64,000 nucleotides of DNA from an uncultured Chloroflexia bacterium (GCA_963774265.1 CAVZDU010000007.1:320001-384000); one strand, 5' to 3'; shown: positions 47,130 through 63,502, numbered from the stretch's first letter. Program-made: numbers and translations. Notes: generated by a model not told the origin, from the sequence alone.

Positions 47130-47507
47130 TCATTCGACGATCAGCTTGCCGCGCAGCATCCCCATCTGGCATTGGAAGCCATACTCGCCCGGCTTGTCCG
47201 GTGTGAACTCCACCGCGACCTCCTCGCCTTCGGGCAGCTTAGCGCTCTGGTTGAAGTCCGGGAAGAGCACCGTCTCGGAGCAGCTTGCGCTTTCTTGGCG
47301 GGTGAAGCGCAGACGCACCGGCTGCCCGGCCTTGACCACGATGACATCGGGCGTGTAGCCGCCCTTGACGGTGACCGCGACCTCTTGGACGCCACCCGCG
47401 CCGGCCGCGACGCGGGTCTGGCCTTTCGGCGCGAACCAGAAGAACCAGGCGATGAAGCCGCTGAGGGCAATCCCGGCCAACGTGACGATGATTTGACTTG
47501 CAGTCAT
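47130..47507 (-). CDS. Membrane-anchored cupredoxin (CupA-like copper chaperone)
   Basis: TM helix, VKGGYTPD, SCSE, FQCQMGMLRG; downstream of copA. Confidence 0.88.
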   Translation of the reverse strand: MTASQIIVTLAGIALSGFIAWFFWFAPKGQTRVAAGAGGVQEVAVTVKGGYTPDVIVVKAGQPVRLRFTRQESASCSETVLFPDFNQSAKLPEGEEVAVEFTPDKPGEYGFQCQMGMLRGKLIVE

Positions 47508-47527
47508 GATATGTATACTCCTTTGCC

Positions 47528-50211
47528 CTAGCGGGCGCTGAAGCGCGGCTTGAAGGCCCGCAGGCGGTTGGCGTTGCTCACCACGGTCACGCTGGAGAAG
47601 GCCATCGCGGCCCCGGCGATCAACGGGCTGAGCAAGATGCCGAAGAAGGGATAGAGCAGCCCCATCGCCACCGGCAGGCCCAACACGTTGTAGATGAACG
47701 CGCCGACCAGGTTCTGCTTGATGTTGCGCATGGTCGCCCGGCTGACCTCGATGGCCGTGACCACCCCGCGCAGGCTGCCTTTGATCAGGGTGATATCGGA
47801 CGCCTCGATGGCGACGTCCGTGCCGGTGCCGATCGCCAGGCCCACGTCGGCCTGCGCCAGCGCCGGCGCGTCGTTGATGCCGTCGCCCACCATCGCGACC
47901 TTCTTGCCTTCCGCCTGCAGCAGGTGGACGTTGTGCGCCTTGTCCTCCGGCAGCACCTCGGCCAGCACGCGATCCACGCCCACTTGCCGGGCGATGGCCT
48001 CGGCCGTGCGGCGGTTGTCGCCGGTGATCATCACCACCTCGATGCCCATGCGGTGCAGCGCCGCGATGGCTTCGGCTGAGTCGGCCTTCACGGTATCGGC
48101 CACGGCGACGATGCCGGCGGCCTGGCCGTCCACCGCGACGTACATCGGCGTCTTGCCCTCATCCGCCAACTCCGCGGCCTGGCTCTCCAGACTCCGTCCT
48201 GAGTCGCCGAGGCGTCCAGGGCGACCCTCGCGTTGCATCAGCTTGAGGTTGCCGATCGCCAGTTTGTGACCTTCGACGGTCGCCAGCACGCCATGGCCGG
48301 GGACAGCCTCGAACGCCGTCGGCTCGGTCAAGGTCAGGTTGCGCGCCTTGGCGCCTTCGACGATGGCCTCAGCCAGCGGGTGCTCCGACGACCGTTCCAC
48401 CGCCGCCACCAGGCGCAGCAGATCGTCGGCCAGCCATGCACCGGCCACAGCTACATCGGTCAGTTCCGGCTTGCCCTTGGTGATCGTGCCGGTCTTGTCC
48501 AACACCACGGTCTTGATCGCCTGGGCGGTCTGCAAGGCTTCACCGGAGCGGATCAGGATGCCATTTTCGGCGCCCTTGCCGATGCCGACCATCAGGCTCA
48601 TCGGCGTCGCCAGGCCCAGCGCGCAGGGGCAGGCGATGATCAGCACGGTCACGCTCGTGACCAGCGCGTACACCAACTGCGGCTGCGGGCCGAAGTTGAA
48701 CCAGACGACGAAGGTCAGCACGGCCAGGATCATCACGATGGGCACGAAGTAGCCGGAGATCGTGTCGGCCAGGCGGGCGATGGGCGCTTTGCTGTTCTGC
48801 GCGTCCTGCACCATCTTGACGATCTGCGCCAGGGCCGTGTCCTTGCCGACCTTGGTCGTGCGGAACTTGAACGCGCCGGTCTTGTTCAGCGTGGCGCCGA
48901 TCGACTTCATCGCCCGCCCTCTTGCTGACCGGCAGCGACTCGCCGGTGAGCATGGACTCGTCCACCGCCGAGCTGCCTTCCAGGATCACGCCGTCCACGG
49001 GCACCTTTTCGCCGGGGCGCACCTGCACCACATCGCCGACCAGCACTTCCTCGACCGGGATGTCAAGCTCCTGGCCGTCGCGGATCACGCGGGCGGTCTT
49101 GGCCTGCAGCCCCATCAGCTTCTTGATGGCCTCGCTGGTGCGGCCCTTGGCGCGCAATTCGAGCGCCTGGCCCAGCACCACCAGCGCGATCACCACGGCC
49201 ACCACGTCGTAGAACGGCTCCGAGGTGCCCTCGGGGAAGAGGCGTGGAAACAAGATGGCGACGGTCGAGTAGAGCCAGGCCGCGCCGGTGCCGAGCGCGA
49301 TCAGGGTGTTCATGTTGGCCGCGCGGTGCTTGAGCGCGGCCCACGCGCCGGTGAAGAAATGGCCGCCCGACCAGACCAGCACGGGCAGGGTCAGCAGCGC
49401 CGCAGCCAGCCACGCCAGGCGCAAGGTCGCCATGCTCCAGTCGCGCACGAACGGGATGTACTGCGGATAGGCCGTGATCAGCACCGGCAGCGAGATGATG
49501 GCGGCAAAAAGGAACTTACGGAACAGGCTGCGGTATTCGCGGTCATGCTCCGCCTCTTGCTTGTCGACCGGCTCCTCGCTCGCGGCCGGCCGGGCCTGGT
49601 AGCCCCAGTCCTCGATGACGTCGTGCAGTTGCGCCAGGGTGGTTTGCTGGGGCAGGTACGCGATAGTGGCTTCCTGGGTGCCGACGTTGACGGACGCGCT
49701 CGAGCACGCCCGGCGTCGCGCGCAGGTCGTCCTCGATGAAGCCGACGCACGAGGCGCAGCGCAGGTCCTCGATACCGATGCGGGTCTGCGCGCCGCCGGC
49801 CCGGAAACCGGCCGGCCGGAGGCCGCGGCCAGGGCCGCGGTGGTCGTGCGCTGCGGATCGTACTCGACCGTGACCACGCCCGCGCCGGCGTTCGCATGTG
49901 CGCTGCGCACGCCCGGTACGCCAGCCGCGGCGGCCTCCACGGCGCGGCCGTCGCCCTCCCGCTGTCAGCCCCAGCACCGGCAGCTCGATGCGCGCCAACG
50001 GCAGGTCGGGGTTGAAGCCGGTCGTGGCAGAGCCGGCCGGCAACGAGGCTTCCGTCACAGCCAGTTCTGCGTGGGTGTAGCGGTGCGGGTCGGCATCGAA
50101 CTTTTCGACGCAATTGGGTGAGCAAAAGTAAAACGTCTGTCCCATGCGCTCGCGGCTGGCGGCCGCGTCCCGGGGTTCGATATCCATGCCGCAAACAAGG
50201 TCTCTGACCAT
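47528..50211 (-). CDS. copA: Copper-translocating P1B ATPase with N-terminal YHS and HMA domains, several frameshifts
   Basis: [52 protein letters not shown] and MAFSS. Confidence 0.92.
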
Positions 50212-50379
50212 GGTACAAGTCCCTTTCTCAGCGCCTTTGCGCCCAATGCCATGATAGCAGATCCAGCCCCCCGGCACACGCGCAGATTTATGGGCATTGA
50301 CACGCGCCGAACGGCCTGTTATCGTTGGGCATACCAGAACTCCAGTCGTGCCGTCTGGACTCCGCGCCAACCCAGTAAC

Positions 50380-55057: not shown

Positions 55058-56779
55058 TCAACGGAGCAGCGGGAGCTGCGCTGTAATAGTGACGCCCTGA
55101 CCGGGGCTGGACGTAATCGTGAGCTGCCCACCGTAGAGTAGAACACGCTCGCGCATGCCCATCAGACCGAAGTGGCCCTGGTGGGCCAGGTCAGCCGGCT
55201 GCTCCGGCGGGGTAAAGCCGACGCCATCATCCCCTATGACCAGGGTGAGCGTAGCGGCTGCAAAGGTGACTTCCAACCAGGCTCGGCTGGCCTGGGCGTG
55301 AGCGGTCACGTTTGCCAGCGCCTGCTGCACGATGCGATAGGCGGCCAGTTCCAGATCGGAGGCCAGGCGAACCACCTGACCATGCACCGCTAGATGTACG
55401 CTCAGGCCATACCGCTCCTCGGTCTGGTGCGCCAGCATCTCGAGCGCGGGCACAAAGCCGAGATCTTCCAGGTAGATCGGTCGCAGGTCGCCGATGATCC
55501 GGCGCAGGCTCGCGACCTCCTCGTCAATCAGGCTGTTCAGCTCCTGGAGCCGGGCCTCGACACGGGCCGGGTCGCGGCCGAAGGCTTTCAACGCCATCTG
55601 GCCGCGCTGCTTGAGAGCGATGAGGCCCTGGATGGTGACGTCGTGCAGCTCGTGGGCCAGGCGGGTGCGCTCCGCCTCTTGGCCTTGGGTGATGGCGCTC
55701 AGGTAGTCCCGCATGCCACTCTGGTAGGACCGGATCCGCTCGGCCATCTGGGCCAGGGTGACGCGCAGGTCGTCTATTTCCTGCACGCCACCCACCGGCT
55801 GCTCGACTGCGTCGAAGTCCCCCCAGGCGACCCGCGCGGCCCGCCGATCCAGCTCCTGCAATGGCCGCACAACGCTGAGCACGCCGAAAGAGACAGCCAA
55901 CAGCGCGACCACTGCCACGAAGAGCAGGAGCAACGGCAGCACCTCGACCGCGCTCATGCCCATCGCGGTGATCGTGTGGACATCCTCGACGGTCGCCAAG
56001 GTCCAGCCCGGGGGTTCCACGTGCGCATAGGACACGAGCAGTTCCCGACCCTGGCGATCGCGCAGATAGGTCGAACCGGTGCTGGCCGGTGGCAAGCTGC
56101 CCAGCACCGCCGGATCCACAGCCAGACCGGCAGGGTCATGGTGGTGAACGCGCCGCCCGGTCTGGTCGAGGACGAACATGGCGCCCTGCATCTCGCCCTC
56201 TAGCAGCAGGTTGCTTTCGGCCAGGCTCAAGGCCTCCACCGGCAGCGCGCCGACCAAGACTTTCCCGCCGGACGCCGGCACGGCAATCAACAAGCGCGCG
56301 GCATCGTCACTTGACAGATCAGTCTCGTATTGCGTCTGGCCGACAGCCGCTGCGCGCGCGGCCAGGAGACGCGCCGTGTTGCTCGCCGCCCAAGCAGTTG
56401 CGGCCGGCGAAGCGGCCACGAGTGCGCCCTGGTCGTCCAGCCAGGCCAGACCACCGGTGAAACTGCCAATAGCATCAAGTGGTTGATCGGATAGGGTCGC
56501 AGGGAGCTCGGCAGCGGGTAATGTCGCCGCCAGGCGGGCCAGCACGGCAACCTGTTGCGCGATCTCGCGGCCTAAGCGGTTCGCTTCGGCGGCCGCCACG
56601 CCCCGGTCGCGATCTTCTACCAGGCGCGTCATCGCCTGCCGATGGCGCGTGACACCGGCGAGTGACAGTACGATCAACACCACTGCCAGCGGCAGGATGG
56701 TCCAGAGCAACAGTTGAGCGCGGAGACCGCGCAGGAGCCGATGGCGCCCGCGTGGCGGTCCGGTTGAATCAGGCGTCAT
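55058..56779 (-). CDS. Sensor histidine kinase (extracytoplasmic Cache-like domain, HAMP, HisKA_3)
   Basis: QEAERTRLAHELHD, LRPIYL, YRIVQQALAN, DDGVGF, GHFGLMGMRER. Confidence 0.92.
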   Translation of the reverse strand: MTPDSTGPPRGRHRLLRGLRAQLLLWTILPLAVVLIVLSLAGVTRHRQAMTRLVEDRDRGVAAAEANRLGREIAQQVAVLARLAATLPAAELPATLSDQPLDAIGSFTGGLAWLDDQGALVAASPAATAWAASNTARLLAARAAAVGQTQYETDLSSDDAARLLIAVPASGGKVLVGALPVEALSLAESNLLLEGEMQGAMFVLDQTGRRVHHHDPAGLAVDPAVLGSLPPASTGSTYLRDRQGRELLVSYAHVEPPGWTLATVEDVHTITAMGMSAVEVLPLLLLFVAVVALLAVSFGVLSVVRPLQELDRRAARVAWGDFDAVEQPVGGVQEIDDLRVTLAQMAERIRSYQSGMRDYLSAITQGQEAERTRLAHELHDVTIQGLIALKQRGQMALKAFGRDPARVEARLQELNSLIDEEVASLRRIIGDLRPIYLEDLGFVPALEMLAHQTEERYGLSVHLAVHGQVVRLASDLELAAYRIVQQALANVTAHAQASRAWLEVTFAAATLTLVIGDDGVGFTPPEQPADLAHQGHFGLMGMRERVLLYGGQLTITSSPGQGVTITAQLPLLR

Positions 56780-57437
56780 CCAACACTAGCCAGCCCAGCT
56801 TCAGCGCCTTCGTCACCGCCTCGGTGCGGCTGGCAACCGCCAGCTTGCCGTAGATGCTGGCTAGATGCCCCTGCACCGTGCGATCGCTGACGCCCAATTC
56901 GGCAGCAATTGCTTTGTTGGTCAGGCCGTGGGCGGCCAGGCGCAACACCTCCAGCTCGCGCTCGGACAGTGGCTCGACCTGCTCGGCGGCCGCCGCCGGT
57001 TTGCCGGAGGTCATCTGCGCAACCACCTTAGCAGCGATGTCTGGAGCCAACACCTTGCCGCCGCTCGCGACCGTCTTCACTGCCCGCACCAGGTCGTCAG
57101 GGTCGCTGTTCTTCAGCACGTAGCCGTCGGCGCCGGCGCGCAGCAGGGCGAAAACGTACGGATCCTCATCGTAGGCGGTGAGGATCAGCACCCGGATCTC
57201 AGGGTAGGCGGCCTTGATCTGGCGCGTGGCCTCGATCCCGTTCACGCCGGGCATCTGCACGTCGAGCACGGCCACGGCCGGCCGGTATTCGCCAGCCAGG
57301 CGCACAGCCTCGGCGCCGCCGGATGCCTCCGCCACCACCGTGACCTCGCCGTCCTCTTCCAGGAACTCACGGATGCCTTTGCGCACGATGGCGTGGTCAT
57401 CGGCGAGCAAGACACGCAACGGCACAGAACCCATCAT
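56769..57437 (-). CDS. NarL/LuxR family response regulator
   Basis: LADDH, LDVQMP, LTAY, GYVLK, LSERELEVL..GLTNKAIA. Confidence 0.95.
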   Translation of the reverse strand: MMGSVPLRVLLADDHAIVRKGIREFLEEDGEVTVVAEASGGAEAVRLAGEYRPAVAVLDVQMPGVNGIEATRQIKAAYPEIRVLILTAYDEDPYVFALLRAGADGYVLKNSDPDDLVRAVKTVASGGKVLAPDIAAKVVAQMTSGKPAAAAEQVEPLSERELEVLRLAAHGLTNKAIAAELGVSDRTVQGHLASIYGKLAVASRTEAVTKALKLGWLVLDDA

Positions 57438-57466: not shown

Positions 57467-57895
57467 CTAACGTTGAACCAGGGAGCGTCCGCTGGCTTCC
57501 CAGGCGACCATGCCGCCGGTCAGGTCGTAGACGTGCGTGTAGCCCATCTCGACCAACCGCCGCGCGGCGATGTCGCTCATCCGTCCGCTGCGACAGTATA
57601 GCACGATCTTGGCGTCTTTGTCCGGCAGTTGCGCCAGGTGGGCGTCGATCTGATCGTAAGGGATCGAGAGATCGGTTCGCGGCAGGTCACCCTCAAAGGG
57701 AATGTGCACGTTGACCAGGGTGAAATCCTTCGGCCCCGCCAACATCCGAGCTAACTGGTCCGCGGTGAACCGGGTGATCTCTGCGCTGGCAGGGGTGGCA
57801 AGCCGCGCCGTGGTCTGCGGCAGTGGGGCCGCCGCACAGGCGCTCAAGATCACAGCTGCGGCGAGCCACAGCATGACAAGGTTCGGTATCTTCAT
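57467..57895 (-). CDS. Rhodanese-like lipoprotein
   Basis: Lipobox [22 protein letters not shown]. Confidence 0.88.
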
Positions 57896-57912
57896 GGCTA
57901 CACTCTAATCTT

Positions 57913-57959
57913 ACGAACGAAGCTGCGAGGATCCAACTCATCCTCGCAGCTTCATTCGT
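57913..57959. terminator. Strong hairpin between the SHOCT and rhodanese genes
   Basis: GAAGCTGCGAGGAT ... ATCCTCGCAGCTTC 14-bp stem. Confidence 0.5.
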
Positions 57960-57960
57960 T

Positions 57961-58200
57961 TCAGGCGCTAAGCTTCTGGCGCAGCGCATCGAACTCCTGC
58001 GCTGTGATCTCGCCGGCTGCCAGCCGGCGGCGCAGCGTTTCCAGCGCGGTGTCGGGCGGCGTGCTGCGGCTCGCTCCGCTCTGGCTCGAACGCGTCAGCG
58101 TCACGACCAGCCAGACCGCCAGGCCGATGATCAGCCCCCAGAACAGGAGCATACCCAAGCCGCCCAAGAGGCCCATACCCCAACCCCAACCACCCATCAT
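57961..58200 (-). CDS. SHOCT domain membrane protein
   Basis: MMGGWGWGM, TM helix, ALETLRRRLAAGEITAQEFD. Confidence 0.88.
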   Translation of the reverse strand: MMGGWGWGMGLLGGLGMLLFWGLIIGLAVWLVVTLTRSSQSGASRSTPPDTALETLRRRLAAGEITAQEFDALRQKLSA

Positions 58201-58408
58201 AAATCTACCCTCACTTTCTCCAAGAGAGGCGGCATCGTATCACGCGACGCTTCGCACTTTCACCCTATATCATCGCGCAGCCGGGGCGGGGTGCCAGGGC
58301 TTTTTGGCGTAGATCGACATTAGGCCATTCAGCGCGGTCACTGCATGTGTTCCGTGCGCAACGCTATCATCACGCCAAATGGCGCATTCCCATCACGCCG
58401 GACGGCGC

Positions 58409-58437
58409 TTACCAGCGCGACGCCCGGTTGGTATACT
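58409..58437 (+). promoter_or_regulatory. Sigma70 promoter of the redox/selenoprotein operon
   Basis: TTACCA, 17-nt spacer, extended -10 TG-G-TATACT. Confidence 0.6.
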
Positions 58438-58468
58438 ACCGCTGAATGTCCGTATCAGGAGTAACCCT

Positions 58469-58901
58469 TTGACAAAACGACTTTTCCTTCTGCTTCCGGT
58501 CCTGCTGATCAGCAGCCTTTTGCTGGCCGCCTGCGGCGGCGGGCAAGCGAATCCCCAGGTCAAGCTGGCCCCCGTCTCGGCGCTGCCTATGCAGATGCAG
58601 CAAGCTCCTGCCGCAGTCCGCACAGCCTACCAGTTCGCCGTCGACCAACCCGGACGCCCTGCGGAACGTGCCGTGCTACTGCGGCTGCGGCGCCATCGGG
58701 CACAAGAGCAACCTGGCCTGCTACATCAAAGAGTTCGGCGCGGACGGCAAGCCGGTTTTCGACGATCACGCCATGGGCTGCAGCATCTGCGTGGACATCG
58801 CCACCGATGTGATGCAGATGACCGGCGAAGGCAAGTCGCCAACCGATATCCGGCAGCAGATCGTGGATACCTACAGCAAGTTCGGGCCGGCGAACCAGTG
58901 A
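58469..58901 (+). CDS. PCYCGC motif lipoprotein, frameshift near 58650
   Basis: AGGAG RBS and TTG start, lipobox LAAC, VPCYCGC, GHKSNLACY, DHAMGCSICVD. Confidence 0.85.
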
Positions 58902-58927
58902 GCACGATGGCAAATGGCAGATAGCAG

Positions 58928-59388
58928 ATGGTGCTGAGCATGAGCCGAACACAATGGTGGGCGGGTGGCATTACCGTGTCACTCGTGCTGTTAACCTTGC
59001 TGGCGCCGCTGCCGGCGATGGGCGCGCCGCCGCAGGAGCGGCACATCACGATCTCGGCCCGCAGCTTTGCGTTCGAGCCAGGCACCGTGCGCGTGAACCG
59101 CGGCGATACGGTGATCGTCAACCTGGAATCAACCGATGTGGTGCACGGGTTGTACGTGGATGGCTACGGCGTCGCGACCCAGGCCGAGCCGGGCCGGCCG
59201 GGGCAAGCTCACCTTTCGTCGCCGACCGGAGCGGAGCCTTCCGCTTCCGCTGCAATGTGGCGTGCGGCAACTTGCACCCGTTCATGATCGGCAAGCTGGT
59301 CGTCGGCCCGAATCTGACCTGGCTGCGGGCGATCGCGGCCACGCTGATCACGGCGGTCGGCGCGCTGGCCGTCTTCTGGAAACGCTGA
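58928..59388 (+). CDS. CuA-type cupredoxin (Cox2-like domain) with TM anchors, frameshift near 59210
   Basis: FAFEPG, DVVHGLY, FRCNVACGNLHPFMIG (H..C-x3-C-x3-H-x2-M). Confidence 0.82.
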
Positions 59389-60750
59389 TGCGCTACGCCA
59401 TTTCGGAGATCCCGGTCATCAAGCGCGTGCTCCGCGTCGCGCTGGCTCCAGTGGAGTCTGACCGCGCTCACGCTGCTTTTCTTCGTGCTGGCGATCATCG
59501 CGGGGCTGGTCGGCACGCCAGCCGGCAACCGCAACTTCGGCATCGTCTTCGTCTGGATCGTCTGGTGGGCGCTGCTGATCCTGCTGCTGGTGCCGTTCGC
59601 GGGCCGGCTGTGGTGCGGCGTCTGTCCCATCCCGGCGCCGGGCGAATGGCTCCAGCGCCGCGCCCTGGTCCAGCCGCGGCCGGGCGGCAAGCTCTACACG
59701 CTGGGCAAGAAGTGGCCCAAGGCCTTGCGCAACATCTGGCTGCAAAACGCCGGCTTCCTGGGTGTGGCGCTCTTTTCCAGCGTCATCCTGACGACGCCCA
59801 TGGCCACGGCGCTGGTGTTGCTCGGCTTCATGATCGTGGCCATCGGCACGAGCCTGGTCTTCGAGCGGCGCACCTTCTGCCGCTACCTCTGCCCGGTCGG
59901 CGGCTTCATCGGGCTGTACAGCCAGGTCGCGCCGATCGAGCTGCGGGTGAAGGACACCGATGTCTGCGCCAGCCACACCGAGAAGACCTGCTACACCGGC
60001 AGCGACGAGGGCTACGGCTGCCCCTGGCTGGTCTTCCCCGGCGGCCTGACGAACAACACCTACTGCGGGCTGTGCACCGAGTGTCTGAAGACCTGCACGC
60101 GCGACAACATCGCCATCTTCGTGCGCCAGCCCGGCGCCGACCTGCTGAAGACCACCGGCCACAAGCTCGATGAAGCCTACAAGGGTCTGATCATGCTGGC
60201 CTGCGCGTTCATCTACTCGACGGTGCTGATCGGGCCGTGGGGCGTGCTGAAGGAAACTGCACGGGCGGTGGGCACGCCGGGCTGGTTTGCCTACGCCGGT
60301 ATCTTCCTGGCGCTGAACCTGGCGATCCTGCCCGGTCTGTTCTGGCTGGCTGTGCGCGGCGGACAACTGATCGGCAGCCCAGCCAAGACCTCCATCCGTA
60401 AGCTTTTCGCCGATTACGCGGCCGTGTTGGTGCCGTTGGGCCTGACCGCCTGGGTCGCGTTCTCGCTGTCGTTCGTGTTGATCAACTTCTCCTATGCCTG
60501 GTCGGTGCTCTCCGACCCGCTGGGCTGGGGCTGGAACCTGCTGGGCACGGTCGGTCTGAAATGGACGCCCTACATCCCAGGGCTCGTGCCCTATCTGCAA
60601 GTGCCGGTGCTGCTGCTCGGCCTGACTGCCGCGCTCGCGTTGGCGCTGCGCACGGCCCGCCAACACGGCCAATCGCCGTGGGCCGCGACGCCAGTGGCGG
60701 TCTTCTGCACCGCCGCGACACTGGGGCTGTTGGGCCTCTACCTGGCCTGA
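59388..60750 (+). CDS. 4Fe-4S binding polytopic membrane protein (NapH/NosR-C-terminal-like), frameshift near 59435
   Basis: GRLWCGVCP, RTFCRYLCPVGG, GCPW, YCGLCTECLKTC; many TM helices. Confidence 0.85.
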
Positions 60751-60787
60751 GGTCGGGCAACGCATAGACAGGGGCATAAGGAAAACG

Positions 60788-61800
60788 ATGGCACGCGGTA
60801 GATCACGGGGCAAGGGAGAGCTTTTTGCGCTGGGCGTTGTCCTGCTGGTGCTCGTGGCCTTCCCGGCCGGCATCTTCGGCTACCAGGCGTGGCGGGTGGC
60901 CTCGGCTGGCGTCAAGGCTGTGGACATCATGGCCCGCGCGCCGGAACAAGGCGGGTTCAGCCCGGATCGGCTGAGCCTCCGGGTGGGTGAGACGGTCGGC
61001 TGCGCATCAGCTCGCCGGACGTGGTGCACGGGTTGACCATCCCTGGCCTGGGCGTCAATGTCGATGAGATCTACCCCGGCAAGGTGGTTGAGGTGGACGT
61101 GACGCCGGACAAGCCGGGGCGTTATGCCTTCGCCTGCACCCGCTGGTGCAGCGTTGATCACTGGCGCATGCGCGGGGTCATCGAGGTGACAGGCGATGGC
61201 CGGCGCGGTCCTGCCGACGGAACAGCCGCCCCTGTTCCAGCAGCTCGGCATCGACATCGACGCCATGCGGCCTGCGGCGCAGGCCACGCCCGAACGCCCG
61301 GCCCTCGATCGCTGCGGGTGCAGCGTTGAACGCGAAGCTGCCGCAGGATCTGACCGACCCGGCCAAGCGCCGCACGCTGACACCCGCCGACGCGTTCCAT
61401 AATCTGCGGGCCGATCCCGCCAACGCCGCGCTGAGCGACGCCGACGTGTGGAACCTGGTGGCCTGGGCCTGGCTCAAGGATGTGCCGCCCGACCGCGCTG
61501 GCGCGCGCCGAGACGCTCTACGCCCGCGACTGCGCGGCCTGCCACGGCCCGGATGGCAAGGGGCAGGGGCCGGCCGGGGTGAATCTGCCCGGCAAGGCCA
61601 AGATGGACCCAGCCATGCCCAAAGGCCCGGCGGACTTCACCGAGGCCGGTGCGATGCTGGCGGCCAGCGACGTGCTGCTCCAGGGCAAGCTGCTGCGCGG
61701 CGGCATGGGCACCGGCATGCCGGAGTTCGGCTCGCTGTATTCCGATGAAGAGCAGTGGGCGATGATCGCCTATCTGCGTACATTTCTGTTCGAGAAATAA
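60788..61800 (+). CDS. CuA-type cupredoxin fused to c-type cytochrome, several frameshifts
   Basis: TM helix, DVVHGL, FACTRWCSVDHWRMRG, then LYARDCAACHG..GMGTGMPEFG. Confidence 0.8.
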
Positions 61801-61828
61801 CACCACGGCTGACAAGAAGGAGGAATGG

Positions 61829-62345
61829 ATGCCTAGTAAGACCAATCAACTACCGAAGGGCGGGAAGGTCAATACCCCGCCCGCGAAGCGCAACGTTCTG
61901 CCGCTCTATCTGGGCGGCGGCGCGCTGCTGGTGATCATCATCGGCGTCGTGCTGATGGCAAATGCCGGGCGCGGTTCGTCCGGTTCGAGCGTTCCGGCAC
62001 AGGTGACCGGCAAGCCAAGCCTGCCTTGTCGATCGAGAGCAGATCGACTTCGGCAAGGTGCCGCTTGACATACCGGTCAAGGCCACCTTCAAGCTCAGCA
62101 ACGTCGGCGATCAGCCGCTGCAGATCCTGAGCCAGCCGGTCGTCGAAGTCAAGCAGGGCTGCTGACCGCCCAAAGCTGTCGTCGGTTCGACGACCATCAA
62201 GCCCGGTCAGAGCACGGAGCTCTCGATGGAATTCATGATGCACAAGGGCATGGAAGGCGCACACGATTTCCGAGTTAAGGTAAAGACTAACGATCCGGTC
62301 AATCCGGAGCAGGAACTGGTCGTGCTATCGGATTGGGGGAAGTGA
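61829..62345 (+). CDS. Membrane-anchored Ig-like (DUF1573-like) protein, candidate selenoprotein (UGA at 62163), frameshift near 62025
   Basis: IDFGKV..ATFKLSNVGDQPLQI..EVKQGC-TGA-PPKAVVGSTTIKPGQSTEL..MMHKGMEGAHDF..KTNDP; frame stays open to TGA 62343. Confidence 0.78.
62178..62194 (+). promoter_or_regulatory. Putative bacterial SECIS hairpin
   Basis: GTCGTCG-GTT-CGACGAC, starting 12 nt after the in-frame UGA, with G at the start of the apical loop. Confidence 0.6.
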
Positions 62346-62503
62346 TCAAACGGGACGATAAACATGGCTGACGAGCAGACGCGCGTAGAAATGCGGATCA
62401 ACTGACACACGAGAAGCGGCGGGGTCGGCGGTCGTTCTCGGTTAGCGGCCTGGCCCAGCGACCACCACTCGATAATATTATCACTTGGCTTGACACGATC
62501 TGG

Positions 62504-62562
62504 GGTGAGACGTGAAACGTGATTACGCAGCACGCAGCACGCATCACCCATCACGCATCACG
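62504..62562. repeat. Heptamer-repeat element (CGTGAnA vs nCACGCA)
   Basis: gtgagacgtgaaacgtgattacgcagcacgcagcacgcatcacccatcacgcatcacgc between convergent genes. Confidence 0.65.
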
Positions 62563-63502
62563 CCCCACACACCTTCACCCACGGCTCGCTCAAGTCATAC
62601 TCCGTGAAGCCCAGGCTGGCGTATAGCGAGCCGGCGGCCTCCGAGTAGGAGCCGACCGCGCAGAGGGTGGCGCCCAGGTCGGCCACGCGGCGCAGCCCTT
62701 CGGCCATCAGCGCCCGGCCCACGCCGCGGCGACGGTGGTCGGGATGCGTGCCCACCGGCTCGAACGCGGCCGTGCGGGTCACGTCGTCGAACCAGAGCGT
62801 GCAGAACGCGGCCAGCTCGCCATCGGGTGCGACGGCCACCAGGTCGAGATCGCGGCGGTAGAGCGGCGCGTGCTGCACGTTGCGATACCAGGTCCAGCCC
62901 TCGTACTTCTCATCCGGTTCGTCGGGGTGGAACGCCCGCCACGAGACCCAACTGCGTGCCGGGTGCTCATCCACGTCGCCCAGCGCGCGCACCGTGTAAC
63001 CGGCGGGCGGGGCGAGGTCGGGGATGGCCGCCGCAGCCATGCGGCGGCGCTGATATTCAGGGTAGTCGCCGCGCGTGTAGCCGCGGCGGGCCAGCAGATC
63101 CTGCCGCACCGCATCCGCCTCATGCGCCCAAATGACCAGCCGCCGGCTGTCGTCGGCCTGGGTGACGGCGAACTGCGTCTCGGCGGCCGAGATCATCACC
63201 TCTTCCAGCTCGGCCGAGCGGAAGGCGGGGTGGACCTGCAAGACCGCCTCGCCCGCGCCCTCGGGATGGAGCACGGCCGCCAGCCGGCCCTCGCCGGTCT
63301 CCCACAGGAACACGGCCGCGCCCAGGTCGAACCGGAAGATGTTCTCGTTGACGTGCCAGCGCCAATAGTCCCAGCGGTACAGCGGCCAGCTCGCCTCGCG
63401 GCGACCGTTCAGCAAGAAAACCTCGCGCAGGAACGCGCGGATCGCCCAATAATCATCCTCCGAACGGTATTTGCGGCGGCCTGGGCGCGGCTGGACGCGC
63501 AA
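62558..63502 (-). CDS. GNAT family N-acetyltransferase
   Basis: DLDLVAVAPDG, FEPVGTHPDHRRRGVGRALM, LYASLGF; start uncertain. Confidence 0.88.
   Translation of the reverse strand: MRVQPRPGRRKYRSEDDYWAIRAFLREVFLLNGRREASWPLYRWDYWRWHVNENIFRFDLGAAVFLWETGEGRLAAVLHPEGAGEAVLQVHPAFRSAELEEVMISAAETQFAVTQADDSRRLVIWAHEADAVRQDLLARRGYTRGDYPEYQRRRMAAAAIPDLAPPAGYTVRALGDVDEHPARSWVSWRAFHPDEPDEKYEGWTWYRNVQHAPLYRRDLDLVAVAPDGELAAFCTLWFDDVTRTAAFEPVGTHPDHRRRGVGRALMAEGLRRVADLGATLCAVGSYSEAAGSLYASLGFTEYDLSEPWVKVCGA

Follow-up and report, generated by a model that had tools for sequence, protein, structure and literature searches.

Five co-oriented genes were read from the sequence at 58469-62345 on the plus strand of the window (the whole 64-kb stretch of DNA that was analysed, from source genome G000), and all their reading frames were found (Table 1). 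The spacing from gene 1 to gene 5 was tight, with 26 nt, a 1-nt overlap (TGATG), 37 nt and 28 nt between successive genes. An earlier note on this DNA had described five tightly spaced genes and quoted their motifs; these were all present, and the genes proved to be strongly syntenic in relatives.

The same note had placed one promoter ahead of the genes. A site was found there, but a scan of 57900-62700 produced two sites against 0.7 expected from shuffles, and this candidate is a weak one, a consensus match only. The two-component system on the opposite strand likely regulates the operon, and regulation by copper may run through it. The window also holds a YHS/HMA P-type ATPase and a DUF2933 protein (Pfam). 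Neither cox1 nor nosZ was found in the 64 kb, as the earlier note had stated. The only COX1 of the genome lies on another contig, C3, and a profile search of the genome gave no NosZ match above the family cut-off.

Table 1. Coordinates of the operon and neighbouring features in the window
Feature	Position	Strand	Remarks
Two-component system: HisKA_3 kinase (55058-56779), NarL/LuxR-type regulator (56769-57437)	55058..57437	-	Pfam
Sigma-70-like promoter candidate	58409..58437	+	TTACCA-17-TATACT, TG ahead of -10; 9/12 matches
Gene 1, PCYCGC / CYCXC-family lipoprotein, Cys form	58469..58901	+	PF13798; extra base ~58642
Gene 2, CuA-type cupredoxin, N-terminal signal and C-terminal membrane helix	58928..59388	+	PF00116; extra bases ~59205, ~59214
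Gene 3, NapH-like polytopic Fe-S membrane protein	59388..60750	+	PF12801; start overlaps gene 2 stop; extra base ~59436
Gene 4, membrane-anchored CuA cupredoxin fused to mono-haem cytochrome c	60788..61800	+	PF00116, PF00034, PF13442; four single-base indels ~60998, 61196, 61292, 61492
Gene 5, membrane-anchored DUF1573 selenoprotein, motif G-C-U-P-P	61829..62345	+	PF07610; Sec TGA 62163-62165; extra base ~62017
SECIS-type hairpin GTCGTCG, GTT, CGACGAC	62178..62194	+	starts 12 nt past TGA
Multicopper oxidase 5'-end remnant	62365..62430	+	homology to G004 and G023 stops at 62430

Interruptions of the reading frames

All five genes were interrupted by frame-breaking indels in the window sequence; the earlier note had mentioned frameshift correction only in passing. 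Compared with the 90%-identical ortholog in G004, the window carried 12 single-base indels and one 6-nt gap, and nine single-base indels fell in coding sequence (Table 1). Contigs from four other metagenome runs shared 11 differences from the window, and G004 and G023 were likewise without its indels. With the indels set aside, the Sec TGA of gene 5 was the sole in-frame stop in the operon genes, and the dN/dS ratios against G004 were 0.09-0.24 for all five.

Because the indels were missing from the relatives and from the contigs of four other metagenomes, and because of these dN/dS values, they are most likely assembly errors. Other genes of G000 were broken as well: COX1 was matched in five pieces and contained an in-frame stop, selA was split over two frames and copA over three. 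The assembly, in 10 contigs and 84% complete, fits an unpolished long-read assembly.

Decay of the operon into a pseudogene cluster, with real frameshifts that came after the loss of a multicopper oxidase gene, is very improbable on these data, even with the oxidase and YtkA genes deleted from the window and with nine frame-breaking indels in 3.9 kb next to an intact kinase and regulator (2.4 kb). Against decay, the contigs of the four other runs, G004 and G023 all differ from the window at the indel sites, only the Sec TGA remains in frame after removal of the indels, and the dN/dS ratios and the assembly statistics are as given above. COX1, selA and copA, other essential genes, are broken in like manner.

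Conservation of the module and its Cys/Sec proteins

The locus survey covered the best 80 loci out of 560 relatives found in public genomes. The core order of PCYCGC lipoprotein, CuA cupredoxin, NapH-like Fe-S protein and CuA-cytochrome c was kept in the loci of 10 out of 10 relatives. A gene-order search across Chloroflexota had been proposed in the earlier note; it found all four core genes in 50 of the 59 loci with room on both sides, and a DUF1573 gene stood alongside the core, at varying positions, in 37 of these 50. Among the best 80 loci of the 560 relatives, the cupredoxin was present in 76, the PCYCGC protein in 71, the CuA-cytochrome c in 66 and the DUF1573 protein in 49. The cupredoxin and gene 3 were joined in one reading frame in 7 of the 76 loci (e.g. 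G036).

The neighbours in these best 80 loci included a CopA-type ATPase (18 loci), a multicopper oxidase (10), a NarL-type regulator (43) and a kinase (31). No member of the COX1 or NosZ families was found among them.

In the two nearest relatives (G004 and G023), the operon is extended by genes for a two-domain multicopper oxidase and, last, a YtkA/FixH-like lipoprotein. The window retains approximately 66 nt of the 5' end of the oxidase gene, where the ATG at 62365 opens a frame that stops after 13 codons; the intact ortholog begins with MAEEQMAL. No ortholog of the oxidase was found elsewhere in G000, where the best match had 35% identity. The earlier claim that the operon has no catalytic oxidase subunit holds for the window as it stands, but the oxidase of the nearest relatives and the remnant here show that it is only partly true, and partly an accident of this genome. 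On the other hand, the multicopper oxidase cannot be the general partner of the module, because it occurs in only 10 of the 80 loci (7 of the 34 flanked by over 6 kb at each end) and is missing from G000.

The gene 1 frame contained the PCYCGC motif, and its window fragment matched PF13798 (7.7e-25). The intact ortholog scored 97.7 bits against a cut-off of 25 for this family, and 72.6 bits, just under the cut-off of 90, for NF041379 (OS_HP4_CYCXC). Sequence and alignment placed the start at a TTG 7 nt past AGGAG, followed by a lipobox (LLAAC). The window carries the Cys form (HAMGCSIC), and an in-frame TGA at HAxG-U-xxC was found in 15 of 71 orthologs. PMC9312934 and PMC13188914 list OS_HP4 (CYCXC / PF13798) as having Sec in UxxC, the leading residue of the CxxC being either Sec or Cys. 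The gene 1 family swaps Sec and Cys at this same position.

Gene 5 contained an in-frame TGA with open, conserved frames on both sides. When the TGA was read as U, the product matched PF07610 (DUF1573; 8.6e-11), with 39-42 bits against a cut-off of 26.1. The TGA was at the same codon in six out of six close orthologs, and the 59 codons downstream were conserved. In 49 orthologs, this codon was TGA in 39 and Cys in 10 (TGC in eight, TGT in two). Protein databases end the gene 5 product prematurely, at the TGA.

The 7-bp helix of the SECIS-type hairpin was paired in 94.5% of cells in 40 sequences. Three of the seven pairs had changed on both sides, in 28 cells, and none of 500 shuffles reached the observed counts. 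The mean hairpin energy was -11.2 kcal/mol in the 39 Sec forms vs -5.8 kcal/mol in the 10 Cys forms, most of which had lost the hairpin. The single-sequence fold energy by itself was not unusual (z = -0.91). The genome encodes tRNA-Sec (C2:93922-94017), and selD (382 bits), selA (506 bits) and selB (293 bits) were all above their cut-offs; selD itself carries an in-frame TGA. On these sequence signals gene 5, the Sec candidate of the earlier note, is a real selenoprotein, because TGA and Cys alternate, the SECIS hairpin shows compensatory changes, and selA, selB, selD and tRNA-Sec are in the genome.

PMC9312934 and PMC13188914 give OS_HP2 as DUF1573 selenoproteins with Sec in U-G-C. Gene 5 is likewise a DUF1573 protein with Sec, but its Sec directly follows a Cys (C-U-P-P) and falls opposite the Gly of the canonical C-G-C in the alignment, rather than opposite the first Cys. 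Its score with the OS_HP2 model NF041425 was 31.8 bits against a cut-off of 100. Gene 5 is a DUF1573 member, but its Sec form is apparently different from that of OS_HP2. The alternating Sec/Cys sites of genes 1 and 5 both lie within Cys-pair motifs. Literature searches found no printed report that linked OS_HP2 or OS_HP4 to CuA or NapH-like genes.

The CuA proteins and their membrane partner

Both CuA motifs of the earlier note were borne out by full ligand sets. In gene 2, the motif CNVACGNLHPFM was in the frame ending at 59388, the intact ortholog matched PF00116 (COX2; 7.6e-10), and the closest solved relative was the CuA domain of Thermus ba3 (5.9e-14). The ligands H73, C108, C112, H116 and M119 were invariant in 24 sequences. 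In gene 4, the motif CTRWCSVDHWRM was at ~61130-61170 and a CAACH at ~61530, and the window fragments matched PF00116 (7.7e-10) and PF00034 (cytochrome c; 3.5e-14). Its CuA ligands C117, C121, H125 and M128 and its haem CxxCH (C248, C251, H252) were invariant in all 38 sequences, and H81 was at least 90% conserved.

Genes 2 and 4 share the cupredoxin fold and the full H...CxxxCxxxHxxM motif with subunit II of haem-copper oxidases (Thermus ba3 CbaB; caa3). Gene 4 has the same fusion of CuA and cytochrome c as caa3 subunit II. Among solved structures, both genes are closest to the Thermus ba3 CuA domains, and gene 4 is also related to the caa3 chain 2yev_B. On the other hand, genes 2 and 4 scored only 44.4 and 51.2 bits with CoxB (TIGR02866) against a cut-off of 147.7, and each was read as having one membrane helix, where subunit II has two. 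Unlike subunit II, the module had no adjoining subunit I in the best 80 loci, and gene 2 is anchored C-terminally and docks on the Fe-S protein in the model described below. With the NosZ models, the genes matched only the C-terminal CuA part, and the CuZ beta-propeller was not found.

The gene 3 frame, read at 59389-60750, encodes a polytopic protein of 421-453 aa with the motifs CGVCP, CRYLCP and CGLCTECLKTC. Fer4_5 (PF12801) was matched by the window frame (5.5e-11) and by the intact ortholog (2.7e-10), both above the cut-off of 22. Eleven Cys were invariant in 59 sequences, and no conserved haem-binding His or other membrane-spanning cofactor site was found in the helices of these 59. The predicted structure had approximately nine helices (pLDDT 84.2). 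Gene 3 fell well short of the models for NapH proper, with 24.1 and 24.2 bits for NF007013 and TIGR02163 against cut-offs of 234 and 213. It had no sequence match in the PDB, and no solved relative was found.

All three modelling runs on the complex of genes 3 and 2 scored 0.86; among three controls, the highest score was 0.00. The runs agreed in at least 94% of contacts, with partner pLDDT of at least 83. When the tool was calibrated, 58 of 80 solved complexes passed the mark, as did 2 of 110 mismatched pairs; these figures are only a rough guide here since custom alignments were used. A memorised structure is an unlikely source of the result, because gene 3 has no PDB sequence match. In the modelled interface, the C-terminal helix of the cupredoxin packs with gene 3 helices 397-453, and the copper loop (residues 102-122) with gene 3 loops 44-48, 131-136, 280-292 and 392-394. 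The controlled model supports binding of gene 2 to gene 3. The Fe-S domain of gene 3 is predicted on the cytoplasmic side because of the fusion topology and this interface. The fusions and the model indicate association, not electron transfer.

A preprint (bioRxiv 10.1101/2021.01.07.425746) presents PF12801 as defining "NapH-like" transmembrane electron-transfer systems, which it describes as joined in modular fashion to extracytosolic redox domains and oxidoreductases. Gene 3 shares with NosR/NirI, PceC/RdhC, NapH and NosH a polytopic layout, motifs of the type CX(2-3)CP and a ferredoxin-like Cys domain on the cytoplasmic side. As in NapH-like systems, an extracytoplasmic redox domain plus one helix precedes the membrane protein or is fused to it, and periplasmic redox proteins are encoded alongside. 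The outer domain of the module is a CuA cupredoxin, whereas theirs is a flavinylated FMN-binding domain; Pfam found no FMN_bind match, the domain flavinylated by ApbE, in any of the five proteins. Gene 3 further differs in an extra C-terminal block of approximately five helices, and the module lacks a NapG, NosZ or PceA partner.

Possible roles of the module

The earlier note had proposed a NapH/NosR-type electron conduit, and the fusions and the complex model make this the best reading. We give an even chance to the operon being a membrane-bound, NapH-like extracytoplasmic electron-transfer complex in which CuA replaces the usual flavin domain. We infer the following about its cofactors, the way electrons flow through it, its link to quinol and its partner. 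Gene 3, with its nine or so helices, would carry a Cys-rich, presumably [4Fe-4S]-binding domain toward the cytoplasm. The C-terminal helix of the gene 2 cupredoxin would pack onto the final two helices of gene 3 and keep the cupredoxin in place, its copper loop would rest against the conserved outer surface of gene 3, and its CuA domain would take the place of the flavin (FMN) domain in the NosR/PceC-type relatives. Electrons would pass between the quinone pool or the cytoplasm and this CuA, and then to the CuA-cytochrome c of gene 4. They may cross the membrane or, alternatively, a quinol site close to the outer face may feed CuA directly. To be complete, the path would need a donor or acceptor from outside the operon; the two-domain multicopper oxidase (in the nearest relatives), the aa3-type oxidase of the genome and copper ions are candidates.

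Gene 1, a lipoprotein with CxxC in the window and UxxC in other loci, and gene 5, with its adjacent Cys-Sec pair, are most likely accessory, and may bind Cu(I) or keep the CuA or haem cysteines reduced. The earlier note had drawn them as the last step of the path, after CuA and haem. By textbook potentials, reduction of Cys/Sec partners by CuA or haem is uphill, and this step was not supported; the two proteins are more likely copper or thiol handlers than final electron acceptors. Since G000 has genes for canonical Sco and PCuAC chaperones at other sites, the two proteins would not be needed as the only CuA chaperones.

A role of the module in copper handling instead of respiration, to which we give roughly one chance in four, was also raised in the earlier note. 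The module has copper genes as neighbours in the window, as that note had pointed out, and in the surveyed loci, with their CopA-type ATPases and multicopper oxidases, but the gene neighbourhood is the only thing that suggests the copper link. As a copper-handling or copper-centre-assembly device, the operon would use gene 3 as a CcoG-like cupric reductase that makes Cu(I) for export by the neighbouring P-type ATPase; the PCYCGC and DUF1573 proteins would be Cu(I) chaperones comparable to Cox11, PCuAC or Sco, with the CuA proteins or the multicopper oxidase either receiving the copper as clients or buffering it. As is well established, Sec/Cys pairs bind Cu(I) well, which favours such a use. 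Gene 3 resembles CcoG/FixG as a membrane Fe-S protein with Fer4_5 in a copper context. The cox-ACIII cluster of G000 contains a gene 3 paralog together with a YtkA-like gene, an arrangement that recalls ccoG-ccoH beside cbb3 oxidase genes, and a FixH/YtkA-like lipoprotein also closes the operon in G004 and G023, as in CcoH/FixH. PMC7558416 further favours this role in describing CcoG as having two [4Fe-4S] clusters and reducing Cu(II), with homologs lacking the Ig domain, and Cox11 as a membrane-anchored Ig-fold protein with a Cys pair. On the other hand, gene 3 fails the CcoG family model: TIGR02745 was not among its NCBIfam matches at E<=0.01, a search of G000 with this model gave three weak matches elsewhere and none at gene 3 of the window, and Pfam found Fer4_5 only, with no FixG_C or Fer4_18. 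A cytoplasmic cupric reductase has no evident need for a fused or docked periplasmic CuA domain, and to our knowledge CcoG does not pair with CuA domains. Two CuA domains and a haem c resemble carriers rather than clients, and Sco and PCuAC are already present.

It is less probable still that the module offers electrons another way into the aa3 oxidase of the genome, as a duplicated caa3-type subunit II with an Fe-S helper. Gene 4 does share the caa3 architecture, and the gene 3 paralog, 27% identical along its whole length, is 2-4 kb away from COX1 in G000, G020 and G031, the three genomes that could be cross-checked. COX1 was found in 20 of 23 module-bearing genomes of the class vs 78 of 121 overall, a weak comparison since the relatives are not independent. 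However, G044, G128 and G129 (93-96% complete) carry the module with no COX1 detected. The module never adjoins COX1 in the best 80 loci, and the CoxB scores and single membrane helices of genes 2 and 4 also argue against such a unit.

The electron-transfer complex remains the preferred reading. Literature searches found no published description of the five-gene module, in agreement with the earlier note, which had recognized no characterized system in it. Conserved in Chloroflexota, the five-gene operon seems to form a hitherto undescribed transmembrane electron-moving device within a copper-handling gene island.

Operon structure, frame breaks and conservation

The earlier note had placed a five-gene operon at 58409-62345, and five co-oriented genes were indeed present there on the plus strand, with intergenic gaps of 26, -1, 37 and 28 nt. 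No terminator-like site was found 3' of gene 5 in a site scan of the operon region. In G004 and G023, the nearest relatives of the genome holding the window (G000), a gene for a FIMAH-domain secreted protein separated the promoter region from the PCYCGC gene. In the window, similarity to this region was reduced to about 28 codons' worth upstream of gene 1.

Features of the operon, its surroundings and related sites (window numbering unless a contig, C, of G000 or a related locus, L, is named)
Feature	Position	Strand	Description
Small cupredoxin-like gene	47130-47510	-	membrane-anchored; …FQCQMGMLRGKLIVE; just after the copper ATPase
copA	47528-50370	-	YHS/HMA copper ATPase
Rhodanese lipoprotein and small SHOCT membrane protein	57467-58200	-	transcribed divergently from the operon
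FIMAH-region similarity	58375-58458
Promoter candidate	from 58409		sigma-70-like; weak consensus match
Gene 1	58469-58901	+	lipoprotein with PCYCGC domain; PF13798 7.7e-25 (fragment), 97.7 bits (intact ortholog)
Gene 2	58928-59388	+	cupredoxin, CuA motif CNVACGNLHPFM, C-terminal membrane helix
Gene 3	59388-60750	+	polytopic membrane protein, PF12801 Fer4_5, 11 invariant cysteines
Gene 4	60788-61800	+	membrane-anchored; second CuA domain (CTRWCSVDHWRM) joined to cytochrome c (CAACH)
Gene 5	61829-62345	+	membrane-anchored DUF1573 domain
In-frame TGA of gene 5	62163-62165	+
Hairpin	62178-62194		7 bp, 12 nt 3' of the TGA
Multicopper-oxidase 5' remnant	62365-62430	+	homology to G004/G023 ends at 62430, 66 nt into the oxidase gene
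FIMAH gene	L013 9669-10028	-	secreted protein
Met/Gly-rich protein gene	L044 4459-5136	+	membrane protein without Pfam family
selD	C1:464620-465552		one in-frame TGA
tRNA-Pyl call	C1:1112899-1112990		ARAGORN; 92 nt, anticodon CTA
selA	C1:1423592-1424922		split over two frames
Haem-copper oxidase cluster	C3:96000-109700	-	SURF1-like, COX2, COX1, COX3; then YtkA-like gene, gene 3 paralog and alternative complex III genes
COX1	C3:106288-107567		five separate matched pieces, one in-frame stop

All five genes were interrupted in the window, and all five were intact in the G004 ortholog (90% nucleotide identity). The two sequences differed by 12 single-base indels, of which 10 were extra bases and nine lay in coding sequence. 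In four further sediment metagenome runs, contigs 90-99% alike showed 11 of the same differences from the window; the sequencing runs matched to the locus shared at most 0.25 of words and represent relatives instead of the strain itself. Once the indels were discounted, gene 5 had the sole in-frame stop, its TGA, and the five genes gave dN/dS values of 0.09-0.24 against G004. Frame breaks also occurred outside the operon in G000 (10 contigs, 84% complete), in COX1, in selA and in copA, the last split over three frames. This genome-wide pattern fitted an unpolished long-read assembly.

Because the four runs differed from the window alike, no other stop was present, dN/dS was low and other genes were broken alike, we interpreted the nine coding indels as very probably errors of assembly. 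That the frameshifts are real and the cluster is decaying into pseudogenes was considered unlikely and was rejected on the metagenome contigs without the same indels, the dN/dS values and the similar breaks elsewhere in G000.

The order PCYCGC, cupredoxin, Fe-S protein, CuA-cytochrome c was kept in the loci of 10/10 relatives, and the DUF1573 gene came next in five of these. A scan of one genome per species confirmed 560 relatives of gene 3. Neighbourhood counts rest on the best 80 loci from these 560, nearly all from Chloroflexota MAGs (Anaerolineae, Caldilineae, Thermoflexus, Ardenticatenales); the contigs of several loci from those 10 relatives recur in this set. The cupredoxin was immediately 5' of gene 3 in 76 of the 80 loci, and PCYCGC was found in 71, CuA-cytochrome c in 66 and DUF1573 in 49. 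Synteny of the five genes across Chloroflexota had been set as a test beforehand; all four core genes were present in 50 of the 59 loci with room on both sides, and 37 also had DUF1573. The DUF1573 gene stood 3' of gene 4, 5' of gene 1, or in the interval from gene 2 to gene 3. This shift in position within a constant gene set argues for a functional link. A gene 3 ortholog was present in 23 of the 121 genomes of a class-wide sample.

Selenocysteine and cysteine forms of genes 5 and 1

The TGA of gene 5 was at the same codon in 6/6 close orthologs, with 59 conserved codons downstream. Over 49 orthologs, this codon was TGA (39), TGC (8) or TGT (2). In an alignment of the 3' hairpin from 40 Sec forms, 94.5% of the cells were paired and three pairs varied on both sides (GC/AU, UA/CG and GC/AU; 28 cells). 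The observed counts were matched by 0/500 shuffles, a test inflated by kinship among the aligned sequences; the paired changes nevertheless entail correlated amino-acid changes (VVGSTT vs TIGSMV). The mean hairpin energy was -11.2 kcal/mol in 39 Sec forms versus -5.8 in 10 Cys forms, where the hairpin was weaker or missing. A single-sequence RNA fold of the SECIS region was not unusual (z = -0.91), and covariation was used instead.

G000 encodes tRNA-Sec, selA, selB and selD. From its own in-frame TGA, the selD product probably contains Sec itself. The tRNA-Pyl call in this genome may be false.

Of the protein-database homologs of gene 5, 100/104 covered exactly 66% of the protein, that is, they ended at the TGA, and all source-given names were "hypothetical protein". 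A DUF1573 selenoprotein whose Sec lies in U-G-C is listed in reviews (PMC9312934, PMC13188914). In gene 5, by contrast, Sec comes directly after Cys (G-C-U-P-P) and aligns to the Gly of the canonical C-G-C. It looks like a Sec form distinct from the listed one.

Gene 1 is a member of the CYCXC/OS_HP4 family. At the first Cys position of HAxGCxxC, where the window encodes Cys, TGA occurred in 15 of 71 orthologs (loci L046, L048, L049, L054, L056, L057, L064, L067, L069, L076, L079, L086, L094, L095 and L098), which are predicted to be a UxxC selenoprotein form. The same reviews list both Cys/Sec families, DUF1573 and PCYCGC/CYCXC, as uncharacterised (PMC9312934, PMC13188914), and no functional study of PCYCGC was found in the literature. 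Foldseek gave no match to the PCYCGC model at E<=0.001. In the wide VIA-align search, the periplasmic domain of CcmH (Z 5.1, with 68 residues at rmsd 3.3) came out level with a designed protein; this possible resemblance is a lead only.

Predicted docking of the CuA cupredoxin on the Fe-S membrane protein

"NapH-like" modules (PF12801) are described as moving electrons between a pool in the membrane or cytosol and redox domains outside the cytosol; their usual partner is a flavinylated FMN domain fused N-terminally, and they are combined with diverse oxidoreductases (bioRxiv 10.1101/2021.01.07.425746). The operon, in contrast, has a CuA cupredoxin where those systems have the FMN domain. Genes 2 and 3 formed a single reading frame in 7/76 loci, and the gene 2 stop overlaps the gene 3 start in the window. 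From the topology of the fusion, the N-terminus and the Cys-rich domain of gene 3 are predicted to be cytoplasmic.

The modelled complex of genes 2 and 3 scored 0.86 in each of three runs, whereas three controls scored at most 0.00. The mark used was reached by 58/80 solved complexes and 2/110 mismatched pairs, a calibration only roughly valid with our own alignments. At least 94% of the contacts were common to the runs, and the pLDDT of the partners was at least 83. In the model, the cupredoxin helix packed against gene 3 helices 397-453, and the copper loop of gene 2 rested on conserved outer loops of gene 3. The listed model contacts included none between the cupredoxin and the Fe-S domain. 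The model thus supported binding of gene 2 to gene 3.

A search of solved structures gave no relative of gene 3 by sequence at E<=1. With the gene 3 model, Foldseek found no match in the PDB at E<=0.001 (best 0.047, TM 0.12), the best hits of the wide VIA-align search (Z up to 7.8) were unrelated helical proteins, and the ESM Atlas search returned nothing but Fer4_5 clusters whose automatic names were uninformative.

Gene 2 had a fully invariant set of CuA ligands. Over 38 sequences of gene 4, the haem motif and every CuA ligand but one were invariant; the exception, the first His (H81), was kept in at least 90%. On the CuA in the FMN position, the gene 2-gene 3 fusions, the complex model and the conserved ligands, we put at roughly even chances that the operon is a NapH-like extracytoplasmic electron-transfer system using CuA instead of FMN; its direction, donor and acceptor we infer. 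Gene 4 would be the next carrier after the gene 2-gene 3 pair. No conserved haem ligands that would mark a route across the membrane were found in the gene 3 helices. The potentials of CuA and cytochrome c lie far above those of thiol/selenol couples. On such potentials, the last step drawn in the earlier note, in which CuA/haem reduces the Cys/Sec proteins, is unlikely.

No description of the operon was found in the article texts searched, nor was literature joining "NapH-like" with cupredoxin; supplementary tables on NapH-like gene clusters or selenoproteomes may already list the C-U DUF1573 form or the cluster. The apparent novelty would be CuA in the place of FMN in a NapH-like system, together with an overlooked selenoprotein form.

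Copper neighbourhood, alternative readings and significance

In G004 and G023, the operon extended into a two-domain multicopper oxidase (369 aa), followed by a YtkA/FixH-like lipoprotein. A minus-strand GNAT acetyltransferase gene adjoins the oxidase remnant of the window beyond 62430, and no ortholog of this oxidase was found elsewhere in G000. A multicopper oxidase was within 9 kb in 10/80 loci, and in 7 of the 34 flanked by over 6 kb on each side; it is a recurrent, not a general, partner. The operon had been said to have no catalytic oxidase subunit. This held for COX1 and NosZ, neither family being among the neighbours shared by the 80 loci, but not for the multicopper oxidase that ends the operon in G004 and G023.

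The window at about 47-58 kb held a YHS/HMA P-type ATPase, a small cupredoxin, a cytochrome c, an FTR1 fragment and DUF2933. The small cupredoxin, which had a weak match to the NosZ CuA region, is probably a separate copper protein of this island. Near the module, the 80 loci had a NarL-type regulator (43) and its kinase (31), CopA-type ATPases (18), SHOCT proteins (16) and rhodanese lipoproteins (11). The Met/Gly-rich membrane protein was near it in 8/80 loci, and its composition suggests copper binding. A link of the operon to copper is indicated by neighbourhood only.

A role in copper handling, with a CcoG-like cupric reductase (PMC7558416) and Cys/Sec chaperones, would fit these copper genes and the YtkA/FixH gene. 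The sole haem-copper oxidase cluster of G000 continues into a YtkA-like lipoprotein, a full-length gene 3 paralog (27% identity) beside it, and alternative complex III genes, an arrangement that would fit this role as well. However, gene 3 falls outside the CcoG family, its predicted docking with CuA would be left unexplained, and Sco and PCuAC are encoded elsewhere in the genome. We consider this role possible but rather unlikely. Still more improbable is an alternative entry of electrons to the aa3 oxidase of the genome. Gene 4 is built like caa3, and COX1 was found in 20/23 module-bearing genomes versus 78/121 overall; yet no COX1 was found in the other three, and the module was never beside COX1. 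The gene 3 paralog was also 2-4 kb from COX1 in two related genomes (G020, G031).

Known CuA centres are, to our knowledge, essentially confined to haem-copper oxidases and nitrous-oxide reductase. A bolder form of the CuA-based electron-transfer reading, which we hold doubtful, is that the operon encodes a new respiratory enzyme class, a quinol:CuA oxidoreductase, with the Sec protein as a partner in catalysis or in the handling of Cu(I). The Fe-S membrane protein would pass electrons straight to the docked CuA domain and CuA-cytochrome c, and the CuA proteins would feed periplasmic acceptors, for example a multicopper oxidase as terminal oxidase. If this were true, CuA would gain a biological home beyond those two enzymes, and Chloroflexota would possess a copper-based route around complex III.

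For annotation, the DUF1573 selenoprotein family is cut off at the Sec codon in public databases. Two unstudied selenoprotein families, DUF1573 and PCYCGC, gain a concrete, testable operon context, in which PCYCGC alternates between Sec and Cys. A stand-alone CuA pair bound to a NapH-type Fe-S membrane protein and conserved across hundreds of Chloroflexota genomes would represent a new wiring of the membrane to the cell exterior. The module could partly account for how the Chloroflexota abundant in sediment and wastewater respire or tolerate copper.
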